Part shown: piece by piece, positions 8,375 through 30,572 of the stretch | How the letters are laid out: every line of letters starts with the position of its first letter | Numbering within the stretch: the stretch's first letter is position 1 | Assembly (NCBI GenBank): GCA_040776945.1 | Contig: JAXGZN010000001.1 | Coordinates: forward strand, 1 to 64,000 | DNA length: 64,000 bases | From: Methanomassiliicoccaceae archaeon | GTDB taxonomy: Archaea; Thermoplasmatota; Thermoplasmata; Methanomassiliicoccales; Methanomassiliicoccaceae | Reading direction: 5' to 3' | Translations under genes and position numbers: made by a program | Notes under the pieces: generated by a model | What the model was told of the DNA's origin: nothing | The model's input: the letters and a program-made list of their open reading frames with translations, nothing else | Database searches by the model: none

Positions 8375-8384
8375 AGTGATCGGC

Positions 8385-9983: not shown

Positions 9984-10344
9984 TGCAGGCCTCAACTCCG
10001 TGAAGTCCCTGCTCATTCATACTTTTTAAAGCAGAAGGCGATGAAAAGGGGTTGGCACTCATGATCGCTATTTATTTCCGCCTCTGATTATTTCTGTCTC
10101 AATCAGCTCTTAACTGGTCATCACATCAACAATGGATTGAACGATCTTCCTTGATGGAGAAAAATCCACTGGTTTCAATTTTCCTGGATCGCTGATATAA
10201 GCTATCTGAACAAATGCGCGTTCATGACTCACTTTCGGTCACGTCCGAATAAGTTCTTTAAATCCAATGTGCATTTCATTGATTGGGCATATGATCGCCA
10301 AAGGAAGAATATTGGCGATTTTCGGAGCAGACATCACTAGCAGC

Positions 10345-10420
10345 TAATATGCAATATTATATATATATTATCAATATAATAGAAATAAATAATTATTATA
10401 TACTTATTGAACTATTTCAT
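10345..10420 (+). promoter_or_regulatory. Extremely AT-rich region upstream of cas3; probable cas operon promoter
   Basis: TATTATATATATATTATCAATATAATAGAAATAAATAATTATTATATA directly before the GTG start. Several TATA-like boxes. Confidence 0.55.
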
Positions 10421-10432
10421 TCTGGGGATCTT

Positions 10433-12826: not shown

Positions 12827-14964
12827 GCGGTGTACGGGAAATGGTAAAACTAGAAGGATGCTCGCTTCAGCCTCTTGGTTCTTACTTAAAAGCACTGGGC
12901 ATATTCAGGATCATCGCGGAACAGGTCGACCCGGAAGCCGAGCTTTTTTTCAATGGAAATCGCTTCTGCATTAGATCGCTACTGAATGATGAGAACCTTC
13001 TCTCCTTTCTTGAGGAAAAATACCAACCTACGCCTATTATGGCGCCGTGGAACGGAGGCAGCGGTTTCTATCCAAAGGACAACTTAACCGCCATCAATTG
13101 GATACGAGAGAGCAAAGGAGATAGGTTGGCGAATTATCGCGAAGGGCTTCAAATCGCCACTCAACTCATGGCGTCTTGGAGCGACAAGCCTAAAAAGGAT
13201 GATAAGGAAATGTTGTTGCAGGCCTGCAGAGCTTCTTTGCCTGATAAGACTGTGGAATGGCTTGACGCAGCGTTTGTGCTTGGCACCGAAAGTCCTCGGT
13301 ACCCTCCTTTACTGGGAACAGGCGGGAATGATGGTAGATTGGAGTTTACCAATAATTTTATGCAAAGGTTGACCGACATAATGCATGATGATGGTAGACC
13401 GACCGTTCCTTCGATCGATTGGCTTCGTTCATCATTGATGGGAGATATCAGGCCGGGTCTATTAAAAGGACAGCCGATTGGCCAGTTCGATCCTGCTGGA
13501 GCAGGTGGGGCAAATATTTCATCAGGCTTCGAAGGGGATTCCCTGGTCAACCCCTGGGATTACATCTTGATGATCGAGGGATCTCTTTTCTTCGCCTCGG
13601 GCGTTGTTAAAAGGGGAGAGATCAACCTCCGCGGGGAGCTCTCCTTTCCATTCAGCGTTAGATCGTCGGGCGTTGGATATGGCTCAGCGTCCCGTTCTGA
13701 CGAGAGTTCCGCGAGGGCAGAGATATGGTTGCCTATTTGGAGCACCCCGTCGCAGTACCCAGAACTGCGGGCCCTTTTCTCAGAAGGACGTTCAAATGTA
13801 GAAAGGAGGCGATCTGCTGATGGTGTGGACTTCGCCCGAGCTGTCGCCACCCTGGGAGTTGACAGGGGCATCGATTCCTTCCAGAGGTACGGATTCCTCG
13901 AGAGGAATGGAAGGGCCTTCTTCGCCGTTCCATTGGGGAGACATCACGTGAGAAGGAACCCTCAAGCCGACCTTTTATCCGGCATCGACGATTGGCTATC
14001 AAGCTTCAGGTCTAAAGCATCTGGGGATCAAACGCCTGCCTCAATAAAGAGGGCCTTAAATGGGCTTGACAGGATGCTATTGCGGCTATGCTCTGAAGAG
14101 AGCCCACGGACCGTTCAGTCAATGCTCATTGCATTAGGGGCATGCGAAAGAGCCATGTGTAAGAGCATCAAATGGGCTAAAGACCAGCATCTGCGGCCGG
14201 TCCCAGCCCTGCCGCCAGAATGGTTCGATAAGGGAGATGATGGCTCTGCTGAGTTCAGAATAGCGGCGGCCATAGCCCTGATTTCTGCTGACCTCTCGAA
14301 GACACCGACCTTTACCAAACAACCGATGAGAGCAACGGTCGAGCCAGTCGATGTCGTACGACGGTCCAGCGTAACGAGGGTGAACTGGGCAGATGAAGGG
14401 AGATTGCTGGATATCGGGGGCGGGCCTATCGATCTTCTTAACGGCCTCATGAAGGCTCGCATCAAGGAACACCTAAAGGCAGGAGCGGAGGGATATGTGG
14501 ACAGTTCCCCGATTAAAGCTAGCCTTACCGATCTTACCGCATTTCTCGACGGCAGTCTGGATGAGGGCCGAATCATAGATCTGTTCTGGGGTTGTGTGCT
14601 CCTTGACCCATTCGATGGATACAAGATGACCATTGACCGGCCACCGCTCGGGGATTATCCCGGCGCCGCATATTCTCTCCTTAAGCTCTGCCATGTCCGT
14701 CCCGCCCGGCAGAGCAAGGAGTTTGGTAAGGACCGGGTCCCACTGGTGCCTGAGATACATCATCGTGCCTCTTGCGGAAACATGATGGCCAGTACTAGAA
14801 TGGCAAGCCGACGGCTACGCGGCAGTGGGCTAGCGCCGAAGATCGATGAATTCGCTCTTTCTCCCAAACAGAGCGCTCGTGTAGCCGCGTCATTGCTCAT
14901 CCCTTTGGATGAGCATGGTGTTCGGATCATATCTGATAAAATATTGTTGGAGATGAAAGAATGA
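12823..14964 (+). CDS. csx17: Type I-G large subunit Csx17 (Cas8g/Cas8u2)
   Basis: L.GC...PLGSYLKALG, PTPIMAPWNGGSGFY, PPLLGTGGNDGRLEFTNNFM, NPWDYILMIEG. ATGA overlap with cas3. Confidence 0.9.
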   Translation: MSGVREMVKLEGCSLQPLGSYLKALGIFRIIAEQVDPEAELFFNGNRFCIRSLLNDENLLSFLEEKYQPTPIMAPWNGGSGFYPKDNLTAINWIRESKGDRLANYREGLQIATQLMASWSDKPKKDDKEMLLQACRASLPDKTVEWLDAAFVLGTESPRYPPLLGTGGNDGRLEFTNNFMQRLTDIMHDDGRPTVPSIDWLRSSLMGDIRPGLLKGQPIGQFDPAGAGGANISSGFEGDSLVNPWDYILMIEGSLFFASGVVKRGEINLRGELSFPFSVRSSGVGYGSASRSDESSARAEIWLPIWSTPSQYPELRALFSEGRSNVERRRSADGVDFARAVATLGVDRGIDSFQRYGFLERNGRAFFAVPLGRHHVRRNPQADLLSGIDDWLSSFRSKASGDQTPASIKRALNGLDRMLLRLCSEESPRTVQSMLIALGACERAMCKSIKWAKDQHLRPVPALPPEWFDKGDDGSAEFRIAAAIALISADLSKTPTFTKQPMRATVEPVDVVRRSSVTRVNWADEGRLLDIGGGPIDLLNGLMKARIKEHLKAGAEGYVDSSPIKASLTDLTAFLDGSLDEGRIIDLFWGCVLLDPFDGYKMTIDRPPLGDYPGAAYSLLKLCHVRPARQSKEFGKDRVPLVPEIHHRASCGNMMASTRMASRRLRGSGLAPKIDEFALSPKQSARVAASLLIPLDEHGVRIISDKILLEMKE

Positions 14965-15899
14965 GCTATGATAAGCTGGCAAATGAGAACAGACTGTTGA
15001 TCGAAGCCCGGCTGCGTCCGATCCAAGGAACAAGGTTCCAGCCTACTGGATTTCCGAACCTGGGAGCCGCGGACTATGTGACCCATGACGGCACACAGAT
15101 GTTATTGGTTGAATCGAGCCAGAGCATGGCCAATCGTTTGGAGAAGGTCTGCTGGGACGATTCCAGGAACGAGTTGGTCCCGGCGCTAAGTGGGATACCA
15201 TATATTCGGGTCAGAGATAAGGCGGGGAATGTTTTGACCACCTCGATCGAGGAGGCCCATCGCATAAACAGCCCGTATATCCTTGAGGGCAAGGACAAGC
15301 AGTTCTTTGAACGATTGAAGAAGGACCTTGAGGCGGGCGAAAAAGGAAAGCCGGATTACCGACTTCTGGCAAAGGTTCTCCTTCATTATGATCCGGGTTC
15401 TCTTATACATGGCGTATTCTTGGCAAAGAAAGAACTGGCCAATGGTAGACTGAGATTGGCTAGGTGCCTATCTTCCTTCGTGGAAGCAAGGAACGTGACC
15501 GTGGCATCAAGCGGCGGGGTCAAGAAGGACGATCTGGATGTAAAGGGAGACGCATCTAAGGGCTTTGGACATGTGCCGTTCTCAAGAGAGGAGTATACAG
15601 GAGAGATAATCGCTTACTTCAACCTAGACCTCGCCCAGATTCGAGGATATGGTTTGGGCAAGAGGGTTGAGGAGCTTCTAGTGGCCATGTCCCAATACAA
15701 GATAAGAAAACTGCTCTCCGAGGGCCTAAGGTTCCGAACGGCCTGCGACCTAGAGCTAGTAGATATGGAGGTGAAAAGGCCGTCTGGATATTCCCTGCCG
15801 GGCCTTCATGAACTCGAAGCCTCTCTGCCGAGCCTTATCGCCAACGTCAAGGATAGGTTCGCTAACCCGCCTGTAACTGAGGTCGTCTACGAAGAGTGA
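14961..15899 (+). CDS. csb1: Type I-G Cas7 (Csb1)
   Basis: RFQPTGFP.LG, LLVESSQSMANRLE, EAHRINSPYI, LRFRTACDL. Confidence 0.92.
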   Translation: MSYDKLANENRLLIEARLRPIQGTRFQPTGFPNLGAADYVTHDGTQMLLVESSQSMANRLEKVCWDDSRNELVPALSGIPYIRVRDKAGNVLTTSIEEAHRINSPYILEGKDKQFFERLKKDLEAGEKGKPDYRLLAKVLLHYDPGSLIHGVFLAKKELANGRLRLARCLSSFVEARNVTVASSGGVKKDDLDVKGDASKGFGHVPFSREEYTGEIIAYFNLDLAQIRGYGLGKRVEELLVAMSQYKIRKLLSEGLRFRTACDLELVDMEVKRPSGYSLPGLHELEASLPSLIANVKDRFANPPVTEVVYEE

Positions 15900-15903
15900 T
15901 CCC

Positions 15904-17469
15904 ATGCTCGTCATCAAGATGGGCTTTCCAGGAGGTAGATATTATGCCACCCCTTGGGATAAACATGTCAATGAGGGCTTGGTCGAGTGGCCTCCCTCCC
16001 CTTGGCGGTTCCTAAGGGCCATTATCTCTACTTGGTACACCAAGGGCGACGGGGTCAGTTTCGAGGTCCTGCAGGCCCTTGTAGAGAGACTGGCGATCCC
16101 GCCCGAGTTCGTCCTGCCCCCTGCCACGCTGGCTTCGACCTGTCACTATATGCCCTCATATCGTTCCACTTTAGATGGGAAGACTGTCAACGTCTACGAT
16201 GCGTTCGCTCATATCGGTGATGGTGCGCTGTACATCATCTGGAACGATGTGAACTTGGACAACGAACAAAGACAGGGCCTTGATACTCTCATATCAAGGA
16301 TGGGGTATCTCGGGAGGTCGGAGTCATGGGTCGAGGGGGGCGTGGTCGATCTCGATATTGCTCCAAATACCAGACTGGTAGATGATGCTTCCACGACTGA
16401 AAGCGTTTCTCCCGCTCTGTGCTGCCTTACTCCCCTGGAATATCTGAGTTGGAGAGGCAATATGATATCCACTCTCTTGGCTCAGAGAGAGAAGGAAAAG
16501 AGAGCAAAGGCTGATGCATCAGGAAAGGGATTCAAAGGACTATCGGCCAAGGATAAAAAGGATGTTGAGGCCCTTGTTCCGGCCACATTGTTCGAGGCTC
16601 TCCTGGTGGATACATCTGTGATTAGAGGAGCAGGATGGAGCGGCCCGCCCGGAAGCAAATGGGTTGGTTATCGCCTTCCTGAGGGAGCATTCCTCGTTCG
16701 ACCATCTAGAAAGGTGATCTCAAGGGACCTTCCTACAGTCGCAAGGTACAAGGTCCGCTCCAAGGTCCCCTTCATGATATTCGATGCAGTATCCCTTGGA
16801 GAAATGGCCCATAATAGCCTGGTCCGCCTTACCAACGGTTCCCGGACCTTTACAGGATGCGATGAGGAAGGCCGTCCGCTAAAGGAAGACCATGCCATGA
16901 TTCTCTCACATGGCATTAGCTCGAAGATAAACGGAATGAGGATCTCTGACCTGACCATCTACAGCAAGAATGGCTTTACTCCAGAAGATGTGAAAGCCCT
17001 ACGGTCCCTGAGATATCTTAACTGGAACAAGGATGTGGAGGTTACTCTGATCGGTGTGGGCCAATCATCTACTTTCAGCTCAGAAGAGGGGATCATCGCT
17101 CGGTCATCGCGCTGGGTCTCTGTTACGCCTTTTGTGCCTCCGAGATGTCCCAAGTTCACAAAGGGCGGCGTCCCGAAGAAGGACGATAACGGATTGCATA
17201 TCGGGTCTGCCGAACATGAGCTCCGCCGCCTGCTGGCAGAGAACAACTACCCGCAGGTCGAGCACATTGCATCCATACCTCGTGCTACGGTCGGGGGTTC
17301 TAGCCGAAGCTGGCTTTCGTTTCGAAGGCGGAGAAGTTCATCTGACCGAGGGCCACTAAATGAAGCAGGCTTCGGTTTTGAGGTACAATTTGTAGAGCCG
17401 ATAGATGGACCTCTTGCTCTTGGGTATGGGTGTCATTTCGGTCTGGGGCTTTTCCGTCCATTGAGGTGA
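15904..17469 (+). CDS. csb2: Type I-G Cas5/Cas6 fusion (Csb2)
   Basis: GRYYATPW...EWPPSPWR, YLGRSESWV, WVSVTPF and the C-terminal Gly-rich GPLALGYGCHFGLGLF. Confidence 0.92.
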   Translation: MLVIKMGFPGGRYYATPWDKHVNEGLVEWPPSPWRFLRAIISTWYTKGDGVSFEVLQALVERLAIPPEFVLPPATLASTCHYMPSYRSTLDGKTVNVYDAFAHIGDGALYIIWNDVNLDNEQRQGLDTLISRMGYLGRSESWVEGGVVDLDIAPNTRLVDDASTTESVSPALCCLTPLEYLSWRGNMISTLLAQREKEKRAKADASGKGFKGLSAKDKKDVEALVPATLFEALLVDTSVIRGAGWSGPPGSKWVGYRLPEGAFLVRPSRKVISRDLPTVARYKVRSKVPFMIFDAVSLGEMAHNSLVRLTNGSRTFTGCDEEGRPLKEDHAMILSHGISSKINGMRISDLTIYSKNGFTPEDVKALRSLRYLNWNKDVEVTLIGVGQSSTFSSEEGIIARSSRWVSVTPFVPPRCPKFTKGGVPKKDDNGLHIGSAEHELRRLLAENNYPQVEHIASIPRATVGGSSRSWLSFRRRRSSSDRGPLNEAGFGFEVQFVEPIDGPLALGYGCHFGLGLFRPLR

Positions 17470-17471
17470 GC

Positions 17472-19121
17472 ATGCCGGAAGAAGCATCTATTGAGCTCAT
17501 ACCTGCTAGGATGCTGAACGAGTTCGTCTACTGCCCTAGACTTTTTCACATTGAGTATGTTCAAGGCGATTTTGTAGACAGCGCAGATACCATTTCTGGC
17601 CGCTGGGACCACCGACGGGTGGATAAACCATCGGAAGAACTGGACGATGATGGTGGCTTCGGTAAGATCAAGGCGGTAACGATGTCCAGCGAAAGGTTTG
17701 GCCTCATCGCTAAGATGGACCTGGTTGAGTTGCAGGAAGGTCAAGTACTTCCTGTCGACTATAAACATGGTAAAAAGCCAGGCATCGAGGGGGGCGCGTG
17801 GCTCGCTGACAAGGTCCAACTTTGCGCCCAGGCCCTTGTGCTCCGAGAAAATGGATTCGACTGTAAGCAGGGTGCCATATATTATAAAGGTTCCAAGGAA
17901 CGTGTCTACATCGACATCTCCGACGAATTGATAGATAAGACACTTGATTTTGCTTCTCGGGCAAGAGAGGCCATTCATGGACCGCCTCCCAAACCCCTTG
18001 AGGACAGCCCCAAATGCGTAGGTTGCTCGCTTGCTGGCATTTGCCTTCCAGATGAGACCTCTCTCCTCGGAGAAAGCGAGAAAGATTTGGATGATCGCGT
18101 TAGGAGGCTTTACCCAGCAAGAGATGATGCCGCTCCTGCTTATGTGATCGAGCAGGGGGCCGTGGTGACAAAGAGTGGGGAAGAGCTTGTCATCAAGAAG
18201 AGCGGAGAGAAATTAGGCTCCATCAGATTGATGGAGCTTTCGCACCTATCCGTAATGGGCAATGTTCAGATAACCACTCAGACCGTCCATGAGCTCTGCG
18301 GAAGAGGAATACCGATCTGCTACCTCTCCACTGGTGGTTGGTTCTATGGGACCGCCCAAGGAATGGGCCACAAGAACGTTCAACTGCGCATCGCGCAATT
18401 TCGGAGGGCCGAGAATCCAGAGCGATCGCTGGAACTCGCACGGCGGTTTATTCAGGGCAAGATCAAGAACTGCCGGACCATGTTGCGCAGGAACAGCGAG
18501 CCGCCATCGGCCGCGGCCCTCGAAGTACTGGCCGATCTGATCCAAAAGGTCGGTGCTGCCATGGACCATGGGGAGTTGCTTGGTTTGGAGGGTTCGGCGT
18601 CCCGAGTGTACTTCTCTCACTTTCGGGACATGTTGTCCATAAAGGAAATGACCTTCGATATGACAACTCGCAATCGCCGGCCACCTAAGGACCCTGTGAA
18701 TGCTATGCTCTCCCTTGTCTATTCTATGCTTGCTAAGGATTGTACAGTGACCTTGCTCTCGGTCGGGTTCGATCCTCACTTGGGCTTTCTTCACCGTCCC
18801 CGATATGGCAAGCCTGCCCTGGCGCTCGACCTCATGGAAGAGTTCAGGCCGATCATTGGAGATTCGGTGGTCATAGGAGCGATAAATAACAGAGAGATCA
18901 CTGGGAACGATTTTGTTAAAGCAGGCAAAGCGGTAAGCTTGAGCGATAAGGGTAGGAGGACCCTAATTGCTGCTTACGAGCGAAGGATGGATACCCTTAT
19001 AAGACATCCCATTTTCGGCTATACCATAAGCTACCGAAGGACTCTCGAGGTCCAGGCTCGGTTGATGTCGAGGTTCGTGCTGGGAGAGATCAAAGACTAC
19101 GTACCGTTTTGCACGAGGTGA
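17472..19121 (+). CDS. cas1: Cas4-Cas1 fusion
   Basis: Cas4: EFVYCPR, PVDYKHG, QLCAQ, C..CSL...C. Cas1: LGLEG, RNRRPPKDPVNAMLS, LALDLMEEFRP. Confidence 0.95.
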   Translation: MPEEASIELIPARMLNEFVYCPRLFHIEYVQGDFVDSADTISGRWDHRRVDKPSEELDDDGGFGKIKAVTMSSERFGLIAKMDLVELQEGQVLPVDYKHGKKPGIEGGAWLADKVQLCAQALVLRENGFDCKQGAIYYKGSKERVYIDISDELIDKTLDFASRAREAIHGPPPKPLEDSPKCVGCSLAGICLPDETSLLGESEKDLDDRVRRLYPARDDAAPAYVIEQGAVVTKSGEELVIKKSGEKLGSIRLMELSHLSVMGNVQITTQTVHELCGRGIPICYLSTGGWFYGTAQGMGHKNVQLRIAQFRRAENPERSLELARRFIQGKIKNCRTMLRRNSEPPSAAALEVLADLIQKVGAAMDHGELLGLEGSASRVYFSHFRDMLSIKEMTFDMTTRNRRPPKDPVNAMLSLVYSMLAKDCTVTLLSVGFDPHLGFLHRPRYGKPALALDLMEEFRPIIGDSVVIGAINNREITGNDFVKAGKAVSLSDKGRRTLIAAYERRMDTLIRHPIFGYTISYRRTLEVQARLMSRFVLGEIKDYVPFCTR

Positions 19122-19125
19122 TGCT

Positions 19126-19416
19126 CTGAGGAACAGATATCTCGTTTGCTACGATATCTGCGAACCGAAACGTCTAAGGAAAACACATAGGAAAATGAGG
19201 GGCTACGGTGAAGCGTTACAATACTCGGTATTCCTATGCGAACTCTCCCTGAAGGAACGGGCGATCATGTTGACGGAACTCGATGAGATAATAAATCATG
19301 ACGAGGATTGTGTAATGACCATTGACCTTGGCGGGATCGATAGGGACATAGATGTCCGCGTTACCTTCCTGGGAGTGAAAAAGGAGATGCCTGGTCGACA
19401 GACCTTGATAATCTGA
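19126..19416 (+). CDS. cas2: Cas2
   Basis: In-frame extension of the 19195 ORF gives (L/M)RNRYLVCYDICEPKRLRK...GYGEALQYSVFLC. Start appears to be CTG 19126 after GAGGTGA. Confidence 0.9.
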   Translation: MRNRYLVCYDICEPKRLRKTHRKMRGYGEALQYSVFLCELSLKERAIMLTELDEIINHDEDCVMTIDLGGIDRDIDVRVTFLGVKKEMPGRQTLII

Positions 19417-19737
19417 ATCGATTATAGGGACAGATGAAAAAGGCCCGGCGGCGGCAGGGATTGTCGAACTCATCCGTCTCTTACACGGAAAGCCCGCTTC
19501 GAGAGCTCCTGAGCTGAAACAATCACGGGAGGCTCTCGACTGACTAGGCGGTGTTTGCTGGACATCGACCTGATCAGATAGATAGTGAACGATGAGGCGA
19601 CAATAATCATGTTCAGATCGAGACCGCTCGAAAAGGACATATTAACTGAAAATGAATAAGGCGTTAGAAACGTTTACCCATTTATGATTCATGATCGGGT
19701 CCTGAAAACACCGCAAAATAAGGCCATATTTAAGGCC
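19417..19737 (+). promoter_or_regulatory. CRISPR leader
   Basis: Non-coding, AT-richer near the array. Inverted repeat TCGAGAGC (19499-19506) / GCTCTCGA (19532-19539) and a related CGCTCGAAAA at 19625. Confidence 0.8.
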
Positions 19738-22700
19738 GTTACCACGTTCAACGGAACGTGGACGAATTGAAGCGAGGGGTGCGACCCCGCGGAATCACCT
19801 TGGTTACCGTTCAACGGAACGCATGACGATTAACTTCAACTCGTTGCAGGCATCGTGTCCGTTACCACGTTCAACGGAACGTGGACGAATTGAAGCTTCT
19901 TCAAGCCCGATCACAGATTTTCGAGCACGGTTACCACGTTCAACGGAACGTGGACGAATTGAAGCTTATGACGCCGAAGAAGATGAGACGCCAAGATCCA
20001 GAGTTACCACGTTCAACGGAACGTGGACGAATTGAAGCGGATGGAGCCGGAGGACCGATTGTACGTCACGTTACCGTTCAACGGAACGTGGACGAATTGA
20101 AGCGCGCTGCGGAACGCCGAAGAAGGCCAAGGACGAGGGGTTACCACGTTCAACGGAACGTGGACGAATTGAAGCCTGATGCCGCTGGCAGACGGAAGCC
20201 GAGTTACGTTCAACGGAACGTGGACGAATTAAGCGCCCAACCCGAGTGGTCCCATCCGGTTACCACGTTCAACGGAACGTGGACGAATTGAAGCGGGGTG
20301 ACGGAGGGGACCATCGAGGACGGGGCGGTCGTGTTACCACGTTCAACGGAACGTGGACGAATTGAAGCTATTGCTCGGGCTACTGGACCGGGGTCGATTT
20401 TACCGGTTACCACGTTCAACGGAACGTGGACGAATTGAAGCTTGGTGAGCTTCGCCTTGGCTTGGGGGAACTCGTCGAGTGTTACCACGTTCAACGGAAC
20501 GTGGACGAATTGAAGCAACGCCCCCGAGCTGATGGAGCTCATCCTCATGATGGTTACCACGTTCAACGGAACGTGGACGAATTGAAGCATCTCACTGCCA
20601 GGCCTGATCTTGTAGCTCTCTTTTGTTACCACGTTCAACGGAACGTGGACGAATTGAAGCACGCCTTCCGGGGCGGTATCGGGGCGCTCGCCTCCTCGTT
20701 ACCACGTTCAACGGAACGTGGACGAATTGAAGCCCGATCCGACGCTCTCCGACTATAAATGCAATATTGGGTTACCACGTTCAACGGAACGTGGACGAAT
20801 TGAAGCAGCCGTGAGCTGCGCGTGCTGTCCCTTCAGCGCCTGTTACCACGTTCAACGGAACGTGGACGAATTGAAGCCAGTTCGGACGATTCCAGAGCAA
20901 GGACCGGGACTAGTTACCACGTTCAACGGAACGTGGACGAATTGAAGCGATACGATGGCGGATGCCCCGGTGATGACGACGAAGTTACCACGTTCAACGG
21001 AACGTGGACGAATTGAAGCGGTGGACCGGGGGCGGCCCTCCAGCGCCAGGTACATGTTACCACGTTCAACGGAACGTGGACGAATTGAAGCAGGCCGGTG
21101 GCGAGGACGGCGTTGTGCGCCTCGCGGAGTTACCACGTTCAACGGAACGTGGACGAATTGAAGCTCGGGCAGGGTCCGTTCATAGCTTGAGGCCAACCTG
21201 ACCGGTTACCACGTTCAACGGAACGTGGACGAATTGAAGCTTTATCCAGCTCCAAATGGTCATCGTCGGTCACCTCGTTACCACGTTCAACGGAACGTGG
21301 ACGAATTGAAGCCTTCGAGACGGGGAAGGGCATGATGGGGCACAACATGTTACCACGTTCAACGGAACGTGGACGAATTGAAGCATGGACGGGGCGAACC
21401 TCCCCGAGATCCTGTCAGGCGTTACCACGTTCAACGGAACGTGGACGAATTGAAGCGCGGCCGGCATTGTGTGCAGCGTGCTGATCGTCAAGTTACCACG
21501 TTCAACGGAACGTGGACGAATTGAAGCCAGGCGGCCATCGCCGCGTTGATTATCCCCTGGATCAGTTACCACGTTCAACGGAACGTGGACGAATTGAAGC
21601 CACGCCGCCCAGGCGAAGGTCGAGCAAGTCGGCCCGTTACCACGTTCAACGGAACGTGGACGAATTGAAGCGTCGAGGGGCGCGACGGATGAACGAGGAC
21701 GAGCTCAGTTACCACGTTCAACGGAACGTGGACGAATTGAAGCTAGAAGGCCCCCCGCCCGCCGCGCAGGTGCTTAAAGTGTTACCACGTTCAACGGAAC
21801 GTGGACGAATTGAAGCCTGAAGTTCCTGGCAATCCTCCATCGCCTCGTTTGCCAGTTACCACGTTCAACGGAACGTGGACGAATTGAAGCACCTTTGTCC
21901 ATTGCCAATTCAACGGTGGCTGGGAAAGGTTACCACGTTCAACGGAACGTGGACGAATTGAAGCCTGGGAATAGACCGGGAATCTATTGTTGAATTTGTC
22001 GAGTTACCACGTTCAACGGAACGTGGACGAATTGAAGCCTCTGTCAACATTGCCATCATGTAGTGCATGGTAAGGGTTACCACGTTCAACGGAACGTGGA
22101 CGAATTGAAGCAGTACCCCTTGAGCGCCCCGATCCTCGGGACAGGGGGGTTACCACGTTCAACGGAACGTGGACGAATTGAAGCTTCGGGAGCGCGTACC
22201 ATCCATCGCCCAGGACGTCCCGGTTACCACGTTCAACGGAACGTGGACGAATTGAAGCCGTACCCAGACCGTTGACGAACGCGATGCTCACCGAGTTACC
22301 ACGTTCAACGGAACGTGGACGAATTGAAGCTTCTTCATCTCTCGATCCTCTTCGTGAGTAGCCATGTTGTTACCACGTTCAACGGAACGTGGACGAATTG
22401 AAGCTTCCTCCCATTCGTCATCTTGCGTATTTTTCTTCACTGTTACCACGTTCAACGGAACGTGGACGAATTGAAGCTTTGTTTGTTTCTTTACATACTC
22501 CGCTGGAACTCGGGGGTTACCACGTTCAACGGAACGTGGACGAATTGAAGCGGGGATGGTCTCAGGGGGGCCAGGGCACTAAAGGCCGTTACCACGTTCA
22601 ACGGAACGTGGACGAATTGAAGCACGCTCTCCGTCGCCCCGGCGTACATCATGACCCAGGTTACCACGTTCAACGGAACGTGGACGAATTGAAGCCTCAC

Positions 22701-25700
22701 CGGCTCGGTGATGAACACCGGACCGTCAGCGGCCAGGTTACCACGTTCAACGGAACGTGGACGAATTGAAGCCTTCCCGCTTGGCCTCGTAAGCGGCCCT
22801 GGCCTGGCTGAGTTACCACGTTCAACGGAACGTGGACGAATTGAAGCCAGACCACCCCCGGAGACAGGGCCCGACCGAAATCCCGTTACCACGTTCAACG
22901 GAACGTGGACGAATTGAAGCATTGTCATCGTATAAGCTTCTTGCACTGCCCTAACAGGTTACCACGTTCAACGGAACGTGGACGAATTGAAGCTTGGTGT
23001 AGCCGTCCACGCACTTCGGGCACCTCGCGTCGTTACCACGTTCAACGGAACGTGGACGAATTGAAGCATGGCGTTCCAGGCGGCCTCGAAGATGCCCTTG
23101 AGCGGTTACCACGTTCAACGGAACGTGGACGAATTGAAGCTTCTCTCATAATGTGAAACCTCCTTCGATGAACGCCTGTTACCACGTTCAACGGAACGTG
23201 GACGAATTGAAGCAGGACCTCCGCTGGCACGAAGTTCGTCCCGGCGATGGATGGTTACCACGTTCAACGGAACGTGGACGAATTGAAGCTAAACCAATAA
23301 TCCACGTCCTTTTGCAGGTAAAAGGTTCGTTACCACGTTCAACGGAACGTGGACGAATTGAAGCTGGTGATAACCTCCCCCTCCATCGACACGCGCAACG
23401 GTTACCACGTTCAACGGAACGTGGACGAATTGAAGCGGAGCGGCCAGCAGGGAGCGGGCGAACAGACCTGGAGGTTACCACGTTCAACGGAACGTGGACG
23501 AATTGAAGCATCGCATTGCTGGACTTCCCAGGTCTTCGATTCAAGTTACCACGTTCAACGGAACGTGGACGAATTGAAGCATCACAGCCGCCGCCCCCCC
23601 AGCGCCTCGATCAGCTGTTACCACGTTCAACGGAACGTGGACGAATTGAAGCTTCAAGCTCCAAGATTCCTTCGAGAAAATCTCGCTGGTTACCACGTTC
23701 AACGGAACGTGGACGAATTGAAGCTGATGGATGAAGCGGACCTCGGCCGGCAGCAGGCGGGTTACCACGTTCAACGGAACGTGGACGAATTGAAGCCTAA
23801 AGACCTCCCTATATATTTCGCTGAAATCTACTGTTACCACGTTCAACGGAACGTGGACGAATTGAAGCCAGGCAAATAATATTGCCAGTATAAAAGCGGA
23901 TAAGACGTTACCACGTTCAACGGAACGTGGACGAATTGAAGCGTCGGAAATGGCGACGGGTCGTCCATAACATACTCCGGTTACCACGTTCAACGGAACG
24001 TGGACGAATTGAAGCGTTTCATGTATATTCGTCAGGTCCAACGCTCTAGCACGTTACCACGTTCAACGGAACGTGGACGAATTGAAGCAACCCACATACC
24101 TGTAGGTATATTGTTCACACTCTTTTGTTACCACGTTCAACGGAACGTGGACGAATTGAAGCATAAAGGAGGCGATCTTGGTTGATATTCATCATTTTGC
24201 GTTACCACGTTCAACGGAACGTGGACGAATTGAAGCTATGTAGGAATGAAATGATACAAGCGACAAGACCAAAGTTACCACGTTCAACGGAACGTGGACG
24301 AATTGAAGCCGGACCGAACGAGAGATACCACGCCAGGCGGTATTGCCGTTACCACGTTCAACGGAACGTGGACGAATTGAAGCGAGGAATTCATCAGCTT
24401 CTCGGCCTTATCAAGCCAGTAGTTACCACGTTCAACGGAACGTGGACGAATTGAAGCGTCTAAGAGATATTATGCATTGACGCAATATTTCAGTTACCAC
24501 GTTCAACGGAACGTGGACGAATTGAAGCCTGTCGGGCGAGTGAGTTGTTACGAAAAGGAAAAAATAGTTACCACGTTCAACGGAACGTGGACGAATTGAA
24601 GCTAGCCCTGGTTCGAGCCGGTGGTGTCCCATTCCTGACCGGTTACCACGTTCAACGGAACGTGGACGAATTGAAGCCGAGTTAATTTATTCTTCGACTT
24701 CACTGGAGCATTAGGTTACCACGTTCAACGGAACGTGGACGAATTGAAGCTGATGGGTCGAAAACTCCCGTACCAGACGATTGATTTGTTACCACGTTCA
24801 ACGGAACGTGGACGAATTGAAGCGTGTCGCCCCTGCCGCGACCAGGATACAATCTCCACGTTACCACGTTCAACGGAACGTGGACGAATTGAAGCATCGT
24901 TTTTTAAGGGGTGTTTAGGCATGTCTGGCTCGTTACCACGTTCAACGGAACGTGGACGAATTGAAGCTTGGCCTCCGGGTATTCATCGAGGATGTCCAGG
25001 ACGTTACCACGTTCAACGGAACGTGGACGAATTGAAGCGGCTTTACGGTATGCCAATATACCAGCCCATTTTTATAGTTACCACGTTCAACGGAACGTGG
25101 ACGAATTGAAGCAATCTCAGGGCTGTGGATGAAAATGTTGGATATGGCGTTACCACGTTCAACGGAACGTGGACGAATTGAAGCATTGACACAGAAATTC
25201 TCTATTCCCAGAACATTGTTGTTACCACGTTCAACGGAACGTGGACGAATTGAAGCGACGAGCGGATCGACGCGATGAAGCGCCGCCTCGGGTTACCACG
25301 TTCAACGGAACGTGGACGAATTGAAGCGAGCTGGAAGGCCAAGAGGAAATGCTGGAAAAGCTGTTACCACGTTCAACGGAACGTGGACGAATTGAAGCCG
25401 TCAGATCGTCGGTGGAACACCAGCTCATAACTTGAGTTACCACGTTCAACGGAACGTGGACGAATTGAAGCATCGCGCTCTTGGGCATCGCTTACGTCGG
25501 TTATGCCGTTACCACGTTCAACGGAACGTGGACGAATTGAAGCTTTTTCAAAACTAGCGCCGTGGACCCAGACGATAGTAAGGTTACCACGTTCAACGGA
25601 ACGTGGACGAATTGAAGCGACGATCCCTGATTGTTACGGTATATGTATTGACTGGGTTACCACGTTCAACGGAACGTGGACGAATTGAAGCTGCTGGAAC

Positions 25701-27651
25701 ACCACGCGGTCGGCGGCTGGCGTGTTGGGTTACCACGTTCAACGGAACGTGGACGAATTGAAGCATGACCGACCCATACTGCCACGCCGACGTCCACCTG
25801 GTTACCACGTTCAACGGAACGTGGACGAATTGAAGCAACATAGCGACGGCATAGAACAACATGAACATCACAGTTACCACGTTCAACGGAACGTGGACGA
25901 ATTGAAGCTCATAAGCGGTAGATAATGGGTTGGCCCCTGTATAACGTTACCACGTTCAACGGAACGTGGACGAATTGAAGCCCGGCGAAGCCCTTGAGGA
26001 TGGAGGAGCGGCACACCAGTTACCACGTTCAACGGAACGTGGACGAATTGAAGCTCGCCTGATATGGTAGTATTTTAGTGCAGACGCCATGTTACCACGT
26101 TCAACGGAACGTGGACGAATTGAAGCTTTTCGAACGACTGTAAATCTGAACCTACAGACTCGTGTTACCACGTTCAACGGAACGTGGACGAATTGAAGCC
26201 TCATTGTGAAGCACTAGACGCTGGTCCTCATAATAGGTTACCACGTTCAACGGAACGTGGACGAATTGAAGCTCGGACGGGACCGGAACGGGAGCCTGCG
26301 GTGGGGGGTTACCACGTTCAACGGAACGTGGACGAATTGAAGCTCGGTATCTCCGGAAAGAGGCTATCGAGCGCTCTCCTAGTTACCACGTTCAACGGAA
26401 CGTGGACGAATTGAAGCTGCGACCGCAGCTCCGCCAACCATTCCTCTGACCTCGTTACCACGTTCAACGGAACGTGGACGAATTGAAGCGACTTCATGGG
26501 ACAGAGGATTGCACCCTTCGGTTGGTTACCACGTTCAACGGAACGTGGACGAATTGAAGCTTGATCTCTCTGTTCCCGCAGGTAGGGCATCGGTCCCGTT
26601 ACCACGTTCAACGGAACGTGGACGAATTGAAGCAATCTTACCTTGCCCCCGCCCATAAGCTGGATGGCTAGTTACCACGTTCAACGGAACGTGGACGAAT
26701 TGAAGCCTTCTCTCTCGCCGAGCGCTCGCCGGCGCTCATGGCCGTTACCACGTTCAACGGAACGTGGACGAATTGAAGCAAATATGGCCTTGTTTCGGGC
26801 ATACATTACAGCCAATGTTACCACGTTCAACGGAACGTGGACGAATTGAAGCCAACATCGCCAGGTATGTCTTGAGAGGCGTGAGCATGTTACCACGTTC
26901 AACGGAACGTGGACGAATTGAAGCTTATCACCTCAGGACGCATTGGGCTGTATGACCTGCGTTACCACGTTCAACGGAACGTGGACGAATTGAAGCATGA
27001 TGTAGTCCTGGATGATGCTCATGGCCGCGTTGATGGTTACCACGTTCAACGGAACGTGGACGAATTGAAGCCCCTCCTAGCTGGGACTTGTAGACCTCCA
27101 TGTGATGTTACCACGTTCAACGGAACGTGGACGAATTGAAGCCTTTTAGGCTTACCTAATTAGGCTTACCTAAATCATAGTTACCACGTTCAACGGAACG
27201 TGGACGAATTGAAGCTTTTCTGATATTAGTAACGGGAAGCGAATGAAAACCGGGTTACCACGTTCAACGGAACGTGGACGAATTGAAGCGGTATTTCCTG
27301 ATGAGGAATGACAAGACCAATAGGAGTTACCACGTTCAACGGAACGTGGACGAATTGAAGCGCTGTGGATGGACGGTTATCTCACCATGTTGGACTCGTT
27401 ACCACGTTCAACGGAACGTGGACGAATTGAAGCTCTTTGCTCAGGTCACTTCCTCCTCTTCTTTCCGGGTTACCACGTTCAACGGAACGTGGACGAATTG
27501 AAGCAATGCAGACGCCATAGTTACAATAATTGCAACCTAAGGTTACCACGTTCAACGGAACGTGGACGAATTGAAGCCAGCTCTGGGTGCTCAACGACGT
27601 GGTTGACCTGCCGGCGTTACCACGTTCAACGGAACGTGGACGAATTGAAAC
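19738..27651 (+). CRISPR. CRISPR array, ~110 repeats of GTTACCACGTTCAACGGAACGTGGACGAATTGAAGC (36 bp), spacers mostly 34-41 bp
   Basis: Direct reading and manual count. Internal hairpin CCACGTTC-aacg-GAACGTGG, 3' ATTGAAGC handle. The last canonical repeat (27616-27651) ends GAAAC. Confidence 0.99.
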
Positions 27652-27810
27652 TTGAAGCAACCGGAGCAAGGCCTGATGCGCCGTTGTTTCAAAGAAAATA
27701 ACATCACCAAACCCAATAGGACGTGGACATATGGGACTGAGGAACACGGACACGGGCGGGTACACCGCTATCCCATTGCCACATTAATCGGATGCAGGTG
27801 AAGTGAGACC
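27652..27810 (+). CRISPR. Cryptic degenerate tail of the array: two atypical repeats (27703-27738, 27775-27810) with alaS-derived spacers
   Basis: Ungapped identity to the consensus repeat is 21/36 and 19/36. They start exactly 72 bp apart and enclose a 36-bp spacer. Confidence 0.8.
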
Positions 27811-27887
27811 TGATGTAATGACATAGAATACAAGGTGGATTCAACAAATCAAAACAATTAAATGAATCGCCATGTTACTCACCCAGC

Positions 27888-30572
27888 ATGTCCGAGTTCG
27901 ACCTTTCATTTTTCAAGGATAATAATTTCATACGTCATGTCTGCCCCAAGTGCGGCCGGGCGTTCTGGTCCCAGGGAGACTGGGAGACATGCGGTGAGCC
28001 TCCCTGCGAAGAATACACCTTCATCGGCCATTCCCCAATGACCAAGCCGATGAGCGTGCATGAAATGAGAGAAGCGTATCTTTCATTTTTCGAGTCCAAT
28101 GGTCATGGCCGCGTACGCCGCTATCCCATTGTTGCGCGATGGAGAGATGATGTCTTCTTCGTGCAAGCCAGCATCTATGATTTTCAACCATGGGTGATTT
28201 CTGAAGTTGTCGAACCCCCCCATAATCCTCTCGTCATCTCTCAGACATGCGTACGATTTAACGACATCGACAACGTCGGGAAGACTGGCCGCCATTTCAC
28301 TTTTTTTGAAATGTGCGCACATCATGTCTTTAACAAGCCTGGCCATGAGATTTATTTCAAGGACGGAACCGTCGAGCTCTGTCATCAGCTACTGACCGAG
28401 CGCCTTGGAGTAGACCCTAAAAGGATCAGGTATATCGAGGAGTGGTGGGAGGGAGGAGGTAACTCTGGACCATGTGTCGAGGTCATTCTCGAGGGAGTCG
28501 AGATCGCCACGCTAGTGTTCATGCAATATCGCGAAACCCCTGAGGGGCGTGTGTCCATGGACATGAAGGTAGTGGACACCGGCTATGGCCTTGAGAGACT
28601 GACCTGGGTCTCCCAGGCCACGCCCTCAGCCTACGATGCGATCTTCGGCCCGGTGGTCCGAGACTTGAAGGACCGGTTGGGGATCGAGACCAACGACCGC
28701 ATAATGGAACAATATAGCAAGATCGCCGGCGCGATGAACATGAAGACCGCCGCCGATGTACGCCTGCTGAGAGAACGGACCGCCGAGCGAATCGGCATAT
28801 CGTACGACGAGCTCATGCGCAACGTCGCGCCTCTCGAAGATATATATGTGGTCTGCGACCACTCCCGCGCGCTCGCCTTCATGCTCAATGACGGCGTCGT
28901 TCCGTCCAACGTCCGAGAGGGCTACTTCGCCCGCATGCTGGTGCGCAGGGCCCTCAGGTCGATGCGCTCTCTCGATCTCAAGATGCCGCTGGCCGACATC
29001 GTCGCCATGCAGATCGATTACTTCTCGCCGCACTTCCCCGAACTCGTGGAGAACCGCGAGGACATCATGTCCCTGGTCGAGGTCGAGGAGCAGCGCTACT
29101 ATGAGACGCTGGATCGCGGCCGCTCCATCGTCCAGCGCATGACCAAGGACCTGAAGGGCGCCCCCATCACCCTGGACATGCTCATCGAGCTGTACGACTC
29201 CCACGGCCTCAACCCAGAGATAGTCAAGGAGTTCTCCGATGTTCCGGTGGAGATCCCTGACAACTTCTACATGCAGGTCGCAAAGAGGCACGAGACCGCC
29301 AAGATGGCCGAGGACGAAGGGCCGAAGGACGAGGAATACCCACTGGACATGCCGGAGACGGTGATGTCCTACTATGATGACCCTGAGGTCATGGCCTTCG
29401 AGGCCGAGGTCGTAGCCGTCATCAACGGCGCGGTGGTGCTCGATCACACCTACTTCTATCCCGAGGGCGGCGGCCAGGAGGCGGACTACGGCACCATGGA
29501 CGGCCGCGAGGTCGTCAACGCGCAGAAGGTCCGCAACACCATCCTGCACTTCCTGGACGGCAAGCACGGCATCAAGGTGGGCGACCGCGTCACCTGCGCC
29601 ATCAACGAGGCGCGCCGCCGGCAGCTGATGCGCCACCACACCGCGGCCCACATCATCAACGGCTCCGCCCGCGACATGCTGGGCAACCACGTGTGGCAGT
29701 CAGGCGCGCACAAGAGCGTGGACGAGGCCCGCTTGGACATCACTCACTTCGAGAACCTGTCCGAAGAGCAGCGCGCCCAGCTGGAAAAGAGGTGCAACGA
29801 GGTCGTGCTCGAGGACCATCCTGTGGAGATCAAGTTCATGCGGCGCGACGAGGCCGAGGCCAAGTTCGGCTTCCGGCTGTACCAGGGCGGCGTCGTGCCG
29901 GGCAAGATCATCCGTGTGGTCAACACCACCGGGGTGGACGTGGAGGCGTGCGGGGGGCTGCATTGCGACCGCACCTCAAGGGTCGGGCCGATACGCATCC
30001 TGCGCACGAAGAGGATCCAGGACGGCGTGGTAAGGATCGAGTACTCGGCGGGCCTTGCGGCGGTCAGCGGGATGCAGTCGGACAAGGCATGCGTGGACCA
30101 ATTGGCAGACAAGATGAACGTCGGGCGGGAGGCGCTCCTTCCCGCGGCGGTGAAGCTGCTCAGCGAGGTCAAGGAGGACCGCAAGCGCATGGAGGCCATG
30201 GCCGCCAAGCTCAACCGGATCATGGCCGACAGTCTGCTGGACAAGGCCCCTCAAGTCGACGGAGCGAAGGCGGTGGTGTACCTGGCCGCCGAGGACGAGG
30301 ACCCTCAGGCCCTATCGCTCGCCTTGACCTCACGCCCCGGAGTCATTGCCGTCCTGGGCCTTGCGAACAAGAGCCCCAAGCTGTTCGTGTCCCGCTCTCA
30401 TGACGTAAATCTGGACTGCAGGCCAGTGCTCAAGGAGATCATGAAACTGGTCGGCGGCGGGGGCGGCGGAAAGCCGGACTTCGCGCAGGGAGGGGGCGGC
30501 GACCCGGAAAAGCTGCCTGCGGCAATGGACAGGGCGCTGGACATCATCAGGGCGGCAATGGCCAAGAAGTGA
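27888..30572 (+). CDS. alaS: Alanine--tRNA ligase (archaeal type)
   Basis: RYPIVARWRDD, ASIYDFQP, NPLVISQ.C.R..DIDNVG.TGRH, VDTGYGLER, DHSRAL, editing motif HHTAAH...CGGLH and C-Ala GGGGG. Confidence 0.98.
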   Translation: MSEFDLSFFKDNNFIRHVCPKCGRAFWSQGDWETCGEPPCEEYTFIGHSPMTKPMSVHEMREAYLSFFESNGHGRVRRYPIVARWRDDVFFVQASIYDFQPWVISEVVEPPHNPLVISQTCVRFNDIDNVGKTGRHFTFFEMCAHHVFNKPGHEIYFKDGTVELCHQLLTERLGVDPKRIRYIEEWWEGGGNSGPCVEVILEGVEIATLVFMQYRETPEGRVSMDMKVVDTGYGLERLTWVSQATPSAYDAIFGPVVRDLKDRLGIETNDRIMEQYSKIAGAMNMKTAADVRLLRERTAERIGISYDELMRNVAPLEDIYVVCDHSRALAFMLNDGVVPSNVREGYFARMLVRRALRSMRSLDLKMPLADIVAMQIDYFSPHFPELVENREDIMSLVEVEEQRYYETLDRGRSIVQRMTKDLKGAPITLDMLIELYDSHGLNPEIVKEFSDVPVEIPDNFYMQVAKRHETAKMAEDEGPKDEEYPLDMPETVMSYYDDPEVMAFEAEVVAVINGAVVLDHTYFYPEGGGQEADYGTMDGREVVNAQKVRNTILHFLDGKHGIKVGDRVTCAINEARRRQLMRHHTAAHIINGSARDMLGNHVWQSGAHKSVDEARLDITHFENLSEEQRAQLEKRCNEVVLEDHPVEIKFMRRDEAEAKFGFRLYQGGVVPGKIIRVVNTTGVDVEACGGLHCDRTSRVGPIRILRTKRIQDGVVRIEYSAGLAAVSGMQSDKACVDQLADKMNVGREALLPAAVKLLSEVKEDRKRMEAMAAKLNRIMADSLLDKAPQVDGAKAVVYLAAEDEDPQALSLALTSRPGVIAVLGLANKSPKLFVSRSHDVNLDCRPVLKEIMKLVGGGGGGKPDFAQGGGGDPEKLPAAMDRALDIIRAAMAKK

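Follow-up and report, generated by a model that had tools for sequence, protein, structure and literature searches.

In P. furiosus (Shiimori et al. 2017) and in the type I-E system of E. coli (Levy et al. 2015, cited there), protospacers form hot spots around active arrays of CRISPR elements (short palindromic repeats, clustered and regularly interspaced), which the text of PMC5737086 attributes to nicking at the leader-proximal repeat. Self-targeting spacers are a second known case (Stern et al. 2010), for which the summary in PMC6990116 names change of the target, mutation of the spacer or repeat, and cas loss as routes of escape. Here we describe a natural locus that can be set beside both. 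It lies in the first 64 kb of contig C1 of a Methanomassiliicoccaceae archaeon (hereafter the window; the genome has 2.17 Mb and 59.6% GC), where a type I-G CRISPR array ends beside alaS, the gene for alanyl-tRNA synthetase (AlaRS), and where the three units at that end, which we call A, B and C, match fragments of an alaS allele other than the resident one. A third relevant case is that of Turgeman-Grott and colleagues, who in 2019 reportedly described spacers against the chromosomal genes of related archaea, acquired during mating.

A sequence-only reading of the window had proposed that these units come from a different alaS allele and that each lies next to a TTN protospacer-adjacent motif (PAM). 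Its coordinates, match counts and flanks all proved correct. Beyond it, we found a recombinant patch in the resident alaS, a hot spot for CRISPR-cas loci around the array, and the same feature in other arrays there. The explanation that we favor, holding it with about even confidence, takes A, B and C for founder spacers: the young array would have captured them from the DNA at its flank, and decay and replacement of the targeted allele would afterwards have rendered them harmless.

Results

Trailer spacers match alaS alleles other than the resident one

The resident alaS occupies 27888-30572 on the + strand. Against it, A (27578-27615) matches 21/38 nucleotides at 28185-28222, B (27668-27702, read as its reverse complement) 23/35 at 28296-28330, and C (27739-27774) 26/36 at 28092-28127. 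The three target sites fall within 240 bp, in alaS codons 69-147, and lie 440-680 nt past the last repeat, placing the source within about 1 kb of the array. None of these is the near-full match to the cell's own genome that marks a self-targeting spacer, and a search of the genome for a second alaS found none, only an AlaX-like match at 27%.

Judged against the resident gene alone, the case is thin. The other 102 spacers of the window (three irregular long units were dropped) have a mean match fraction of 0.546 and a maximum of 0.649; A, at 0.55, sits at that mean, B, at 0.66, barely exceeds the maximum, and only C, at 0.72, is clearly above chance. Adding the alaS genes of relatives makes the case strong. 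We fetched alaS from 29 related genomes, loci that are kin and hence not independent, and by our reading the highest match without gaps was the one at the homologous position of alaS in 26/29 loci for A, 26/29 for B and 28/29 for C. The best matches were 31/38 for A (0.82, to locus L013) and 30/36 for C (0.83, to L005 and L011), with B, the weakest of the three, at 24-25/35. As a null we compared the same 102 spacers with 21 relatives' alleles, eight loci (L020 and L024-L030) having been left out of that alignment, and obtained a mean of 0.598, a standard deviation of 0.038 and a maximum of 0.703. A and C lie more than five standard deviations above these spacers, and B's match fraction was reached by 0/102 of them. 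In shuffles within alaS codons 41-230, the observed value was reached in 0/2000 cases for A, 1/2000 for B and 0/2000 for C; for B, this region was picked after A and C were known.

These numbers bear on whether the resemblance could be accidental. The values of A and B against the resident gene would allow it, but the comparison with relatives refutes chance for A and C, the three sites crowd into 240 bp and all carry a PAM, and independent arrays described below show the same pattern, leaving chance resemblance with a negligible probability. The sequence-only reading had called the three hits very unlikely by chance; this and its other points stand, most weakly for B, although against the resident gene alone only C is clearly above chance. 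Its claim of a different allele is borne out too: A and C are far closer to relatives' alleles than to the resident one and no other spacer equals them. The other 102 spacers had no match beyond the null to relatives' alaS or to the acetolactate-synthase-like (ALS-like) gene on the far side of the array, and when the whole array was compared with 40 relatives by BLAST, matches outside alaS and one solitary repeat (in G007, below) stayed at noise level.

In translation, A reads QLWVLNDVVDLP, three changes from the genus-typical QPWVLNGVVDPP, where the resident gene has QPWVISEVVEPP; C reads EEHGHGRVHRYP, one change from the genus-typical EEHGHGRVRRYP, where the resident has ESNGHGRVRRYP; and B reads VIFFETTAHQA, to be compared with YTFFEMLAHHA. 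The earlier remark that at some sites the spacers are closer to the usual archaeal AlaRS motifs holds: they carry PPA and AHxA, in contrast to PPH and AHHV in the resident alaS. The GC content of A and C, 66-67%, is genome-like and unlike that of the CRISPR-cas island. The source looks like a GC-rich, genus-typical alaS allele. The exact allele was found neither among the sampled alleles (best match at most 83%) nor in the family's 24 genomes, which gave nothing better; no metagenome sequence matched spacer A when four of its positions were left free, and a scan of genome contigs for the repeat end followed by a degenerate alaS motif returned only the contig of G019, a relative discussed below. 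Changes at columns invariant in 22 alleles number 2/18 in A, 3/18 in B and 0/11 in C, and all five are transitions. The proline-to-leucine changes, which had been taken for later decay, lie on such columns, and the pattern as a whole fits neutral decay after capture.

The units lie at the old end of the array

The array runs from 19738 to 27651 on the + strand and has 107 repeats of 36 nt, the last with one change (GAAAC). A 320-nt leader (19417-19737, +) lies on its cas-proximal side. Two features give the polarity, the + strand ending of the repeat in ATTGAAGC and the position of the leader beside cas2: the array is young at its cas-proximal end and old on the alaS side, its trailer. A metagenome contig, L088, confirms this polarity: its Cas4/1 and Cas2 are 100% identical to those of the window and its leader is the same, and its leader-end spacers are mostly different, with one of eight present verbatim in the window array and two more partly shared (blastn). 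A, B and C thus sit opposite the leader, at the trailer end. Public contigs from two independent studies span 27615-28700 with zero differences, so the junction between trailer and alaS is not an assembly artefact of this genome. Habitats in which the organism occurs include digesters and sludge.

Some features of the array ends stand apart from this argument. Public contigs from two studies (runs X2 and X4) fuse the leader end straight to the last repeat at 27615 and the trailer, and a contig from run X18 fuses it to an inner repeat at 27397; they may reflect assembly collapse through the 36-nt repeats or real minimal-array variants, and we base nothing on them. At the leader end (19774-20258), three of the first eight repeats have 2-4-nt deletions or several changes, a degeneracy expected at the trailer instead. 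The leader-proximal spacer at 20295-20332 matches a membrane-protein gene of the same genome (G000:C1:945765-945802) at 28/38, with a 26/28 core (blastn E 4.5e-5); the flank of this genomic match is GAC, not TTN, and a homologue elsewhere may be the source.

Spacer A (27578-27615, +, 38 nt) is the final spacer between well-kept repeats, one intact and one with a single change, and corresponds to alaS codons 100-112. Unit B (27652-27702, -) lies between the last repeat and a decayed repeat at 27703. It consists of a 7-nt insertion after the last repeat and a 44-nt unit, made up of 9 unexplained bases and the 35-nt homology, 27668-27702 being the reverse complement of alaS codons 137-147. The decayed repeat (27703-27738, +) matches the consensus at 21/36, the best position within 27652-27887, with 12/2000 shuffles scoring equally well; it is decayed but real. 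Unit C (27739-27776, +) covers alaS codons 69-80, again in a non-resident allele. An uncertain second decayed repeat may follow it at 27775-27810 (+, 19/36); 184/2000 shuffles are as good, and its support is the 72-nt phase only.

The units have the dimensions of spacers. Their homologies span 38 nt (A), 35 nt (B) and 36-38 nt (C), within the 33-41 nt range of the array's spacers, and local alignments place the start of C at 27739 in seven of the eight relatives shown (27738 in L002) and its end at 27776 in six of the eight. What marks the spacers of this type I-G array, namely a place between repeats at the array period, spacer length, a TTN PAM and adaptation genes in the island (a Cas4g/Cas1g fusion, E 8e-227, and a cas2 open reading frame, ORF), was found. 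We also considered C as a piece of a longer pseudogene, which the end of its local alignments at 36-38 nt ruled out.

This structure also bears on whether the units are simply debris, that is, the remains of an alaS 5' end duplicated upon insertion and later interrupted by repeats. In its favor, G007 has a collinear decayed fragment of the alaS 5' end (nt 193-215, matching at 20/22, together with nt 250-313), whose two scores, 34 and 33, exceed the best of 200 shuffles, 31. The window's pieces, however, are not collinear: in the order A, B, C they represent codons 100, 137 and 69, with B inverted. Each is spacer-sized and begins right after a PAM, A is bounded exactly by repeats, and the left end of the island (9984-10349), when searched, held no alaS debris above noise. 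Order, strand, size and PAM largely refute debris as the origin of the units, and we regard it as very improbable.

A TTN motif flanks every target site

All three sites have TTN on their 5' side in 22/22 alleles, as TTY for A, TTG or TTA for B and TTC or TTT for C, against a background of 988/22344 positions (4.4%) in that region. In the resident alaS the flanks are TTT (A), TTA (B) and TTC (C). PMC9638904, citing Almendros 2019, gives TTN as the type I-G PAM, in agreement with the motif proposed for each site.

A check against viral protospacers, as the sequence-only reading had suggested, succeeded in part. The evidence specific to this array, apart from the literature, consists of four protospacers in two near-identical (93%) metagenome contigs, L089 and L090, which appear virus-like in carrying connector and tail protein families (upper collar connector). 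These contigs hold four distinct protospacers of window or L088 spacers, with flanks TTC, TTG, TCT and CTG. The first two are canonical; the third, belonging to the 40-nt spacer at 21165-21204, becomes TTC only when the spacer is slipped by 2 nt, so that two PAM-side bases belong to it; and the fourth, CTG, does not conform. That last flank comes from an L088 spacer that targets the same viral site as 21165-21204 on the opposite strand.

Broader searches added nothing to these protospacers: the whole array had no BLAST match in a phage collection, the array repeat was not found in collections of viral contigs and genome contigs, and a search of viral contigs for relatives of one virus ORF found none. 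Separately, L090 (953-988) and L089 (4651-4686, minus strand) each contain one solitary exact copy of the array's 36-nt repeat, intergenic and just before an 87-aa ORF, in the same contigs that window and L088 spacers target. It looks like a virus-borne solitary repeat unit.

CRISPR-cas loci recur between the ALS-like gene and alaS

The array belongs to a type I-G CRISPR-cas island that fills the 17.9-kb interval between the ALS-like gene and alaS in the window genome (G000). The left flank is the ALS-like gene itself, for a thiamine pyrophosphate enzyme (8304-9983, +; NF006187, E 1.3e-167). It is followed by the cas operon (10349-19416, +) of cas3g, cas8g/csx17, cas7g, csb2, a cas4g/cas1g fusion and cas2, identified by NCBIfam matches with E from 3e-34 to 8e-227, with cas2 assigned from the ORF at 19121-19416. 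Ribosomal proteins and AlaRS in the window are of archaeal type.

Across the order, the ALS-like gene is the immediate neighbour of alaS in many relatives, lying at most 1.5 kb upstream of it in 11 of the 17 tested. In some genomes the interval is occupied. G015 has an 18.7-kb type I-C island with 114 repeats; G009 has 22.7 kb with a 64-repeat array of a different repeat type; G007 has 1.4 kb, in which one degenerate I-G repeat stands alone, about 170 nt upstream of an alaS of the genus-typical kind; and in G019 and G021 the contigs end within arrays just upstream of alaS. The loci from metagenome-assembled genomes are fragmentary. The labels I-C-like for G019 and I-E-like for G021 rest on the appearance of their repeats: the 3' end of the G019 repeat differs from the type I-C repeat of G015 at 1/21 positions, and the G021 repeat resembles that of type I-E.

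In G019, a degenerate repeat follows the last spacer, which represents alaS codons 124-135 and matches the allele of G001 at 33/35 (blastn E 6.7e-11), that of G021 at 31/35 and its own at 22/35; the site, about 670 nt away, is flanked by TTC or TTT in 22/22 alleles, and the G019 alaS has a low-GC3 (GC at third codon positions) 5' part, codons 1-400. In G021, the region of the last spacer matches alaS codons 22-31 at 24/27, about 520 nt away, and a degenerate repeat abuts it; its local score of 39 compares with at most 31 in 100 shuffles. The PAM of type I-E is AAG, and the G021 match ends 32 nt past an AAG codon. In G015 the trailer faces the ALS-like gene instead, and the true last spacer, which follows the last good repeat and precedes a degenerate one, matches this ALS-like gene, about 950 nt away, at 26/35 at best and at 23/35 in its own copy, the match falling at the homologous site in nearly all relatives; 0/1000 shuffles reached the observed value (shuffle maximum 24), and the flank CTT becomes TTC, given in the literature as the type I-C PAM, with a one-base offset. 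Counting the window, the trailer-most spacer derives from the gene at the trailer in four of the five arrays of this interval. When set against the allele collections for alaS and the ALS-like gene, the remaining spacers of G015 and G009 did not exceed the null.

Two further observations concern the history of the interval. In G007 (L007), about 420-520 nt upstream of the solitary repeat (reverse strand, ~3125-3015), lies the collinear decayed copy of alaS nt 193-313 mentioned above, on the same strand as the intact alaS, which suggests past duplication or displacement of the alaS 5' end. In G019 (L003), positions 210-256, just upstream of alaS, hold a 21-nt piece that is 20/21 identical to the window-type low-GC alaS allele and, 10 bases beyond it, 16 nt identical to the window's I-G leader-repeat junction. 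These pieces look like remnants of an I-G array beneath the type I-C-like one.

The resident alaS is a mosaic over the targeted stretch

A low-GC3 recombinant patch covers 28008-28562 (+) of alaS, codons ~41-225 and possibly up to codon 350, and includes the target sites of A, B and C. GC3 is 0.675 in codons 1-40, 0.562 in 41-225, 0.80 in 226-350 and 0.89 in 351-894; long ORFs of the genome have a median of 0.80, a value of 0.60 or less occurs in only 6% of 185-codon windows, and the cas genes range from 0.51 to 0.60. Identity to the closest relatives falls across the patch. In segment trees the window groups with L007 within its genus for codons 351-780, and for codons 41-225 and 226-350 it lies with L002 outside the genus cluster; these are FastTree topologies, which we used only together with the identity and GC3 tables. 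Codons 47-57 carry a signature like that of L003, from another genus. With 17/38, 12/35 and 10/36 mismatches to A, B and C, the resident gene would be expected to escape cleavage, as had been predicted. The other flank differs: GC3 in the ALS-like gene is 0.72-0.97 up to its 3' end. We had considered that the island was transferred together with both flanks, and dropped this since the ALS-like gene has no low-GC3 or divergent 3' tract.

The patch invites a reading in which the spacers have a selfish function. They would cut the empty-site or rival alaS allele, in a new cell or on incoming island-free DNA, and repair from the immune alaS linked to the island would drag the cassette in (homing) or block its loss by recombination (anti-eviction). 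The spacers do match the common genus-typical allele and the island-linked allele is immune; the patch covers exactly the three target sites; the feature recurs in three arrays that face alaS; and A still has an intact repeat on one side and a repeat with a single change on the other. But B and C have lost their repeats and A carries two changes at invariant columns, so there is no sign of maintaining selection, and A has at least 7 mismatches to every sampled allele. The spacer of G015, taken from the ALS-like gene in a convergent arrangement, fits passive capture beside the trailer better than a drive on alaS. We consider a selfish function improbable.

The main alternative is that CRISPR-cas cassettes were exchanged by homologous recombination with one crossover inside alaS. 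The alaS that supplied the spacers would then be that of the other parent or the native one that was displaced, both being in one cell at the time, and the spacers would have survived since their target travelled with the array or was replaced alongside it, other targets being lethal to the recombinant. Five different arrays or cassettes and one remnant share the interval, the GC3 of the patch is cas-like, and codons 47-57 bear an L003-like signature of another genus. The G019 spacer matches an other-genus alaS at 33/35, and the 20/21 piece of window-type alaS in G019, with its 16-nt I-G leader-repeat junction, implies traffic between lineages at the locus. The mating-acquired spacers reported by Turgeman-Grott and colleagues speak for exchange as well. 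Exchange nevertheless leaves the oldest position in four arrays unexplained unless each cassette arrived with a near-empty array, the ALS-like flank of the window has no donor-like tract, none of the other 102 spacers exceeds the null against relatives' alaS or ALS-like gene, and the whole-array BLAST gave nothing above noise outside alaS and the G007 repeat. It accounts for the oldest-position rule less well than founder spacers do, and we think it possible but rather unlikely.

Discussion

If A, B and C are founder spacers, they would be the first three that the array ever kept, very old, selected by PAM and drawn from the 5' part of the trailer-flanking alaS. An array that was new, or that had shrunk to a single repeat or a few, would have had its leader-proximal repeat, the place at which Cas4/1-Cas2 would nick and integrate, only about 0.3-0.7 kb from alaS codons 69-147. 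DNA ends beside an active array are a known source of prespacers, and a burst of capture there could have yielded pieces of both strands within 240 bp. The source would have been the GC-rich, genus-typical alaS allele then resident at the locus. Such spacers would aim at an essential gene of their own cell, and the surviving lineage would be the one with a foreign low-GC3 patch over that stretch; with spacers and repeats decaying too, all three units would now be inert fossils. The sequences show what the spacers are, their PAM, a non-resident source, the mosaic alaS and the recurrence in other arrays; from these we infer the capture at array birth, the self origin, the causal link to allele replacement and the order of capture, patch and decay.

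That different adaptation machineries made four independent captures, each at the oldest position and each from the neighbour on the trailer side, speaks for a cause that is general and passive, and the hot spots seen around active arrays in the laboratory are the best candidate for it. The trailer gene lies inside the acquisition hot spot while an array has one or a few repeats and outside it once the array is long, which points to founder spacers. The known escape routes can be read at this one interval: change of the target in the recombinant alaS patches of G000 and G019, mutation of spacer and repeat in the decayed B and C and in the units of G021 and G015, and cas loss in G007, whose solitary repeat sits beside an intact, genus-typical alaS.

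Several points weigh against the founder explanation. The last four spacers of G009 had no match in its own 3-kb flank, a comparison with resident sequence only and hence of low power, and the matches of G021 and G015 are modest and were found by scanning. No sampled allele exceeds 83% identity to A, B or C, which weakens the case for a self origin; the best matches are non-resident, and a former resident and a foreign allele fit them equally. Likewise, the G019 spacer is nearest to an allele of another genus (33/35, against 31/35 in its own), and a foreign source fits it equally well. The GC3 of the patch, 0.56, resembles the 0.51-0.60 of the cas genes, so island and patch may have come together, in which case the spacers would target a displaced allele and not self. 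That alaS codons 1-40 look genus-typical, so that the patch does not adjoin the island, cuts both ways. G002 has the same type of patch, yet no island was found in its assembly. Finally, divergence is about 42-47% in the repeats on either side of C, against at most 17% between C and living alleles, a gap that can be bridged only by assuming in addition a change in the repeat consensus.

The implications extend beyond this array. The birth of arrays and their first spacers are hardly documented in nature, and here four arrays (I-G, I-C-like, I-E-like and I-C) at one hot spot keep a PAM-compliant piece of a neighbouring gene at the oldest position. The rule that the oldest spacer comes from flanking DNA is testable, can be checked over thousands of genomes, and could serve as a dating mark for the birth or reset of an array. 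The locus also ties the mosaic structure of an essential housekeeping gene to the immune system next to it; were the link causal, CRISPR autoimmunity would be a force for recombination and allele replacement in core genes. A bolder claim, which we put forward as an unlikely one, is that arrays routinely begin with neighbour-gene spacers and that this self-aimed memory then forces replacement of the targeted segment by a foreign allele. If so, any immune allele could serve to mend the cut copies in a polyploid archaeon, an array would turn over the alleles at its own borders and tie the cassette to the immune flank allele, and the gathering of many CRISPR types beside a mosaic alaS at one locus would be explained. 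A full-text search of one collection of papers for oldest or trailer-end spacers derived from the adjacent gene found none.

The archaeal mating spacers that Turgeman-Grott and colleagues are said to have described in 2019 share with our case a type I system and spacers that match a relative's housekeeping allele, best seen in the 33/35 of G019, the only near-perfect match to a relative. Unlike those, the spacers here concern only the gene that touches the trailer and only the oldest positions, not the whole genome; near-perfect matches over many genes are not seen, the window spacers reaching at most 83% to any sampled allele; and the family of archaea is a different one, with types I-G, I-C and I-E-like. 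Self-targeting spacers (Stern et al. 2010, as summarised in PMC6990116) likewise come from a chromosomal, non-mobile gene, but here there is no high-identity match in the own genome, the target is an essential housekeeping gene, and the apparent escape is the foreign replacement of a 0.55-0.9 kb gene segment, not a point mutation. With the hot spots of P. furiosus and E. coli, as PMC5737086 describes them, our locus shares a source within about 1 kb of the array, PAM compliance and the use of both strands; the source there is the cell's own DNA, as it may have been here. Those hot spots were seen by laboratory deep sequencing of new, leader-end spacers, whereas ours is a natural fossil, made of the oldest spacers, present in four natural arrays of different subtypes and no longer matching the resident allele. 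Type I-G arrays, their TTN PAM, array-adjacent hot spots, self-targeting with its escapes, and archaeal spacers against relatives' housekeeping genes are thus known. What appear to be new are a natural, recurrent rule by which the oldest spacers copy the gene flanking the trailer, its coupling to a recombinant patch within a gene that is essential, and a single locus that gathers at least four CRISPR subtypes.

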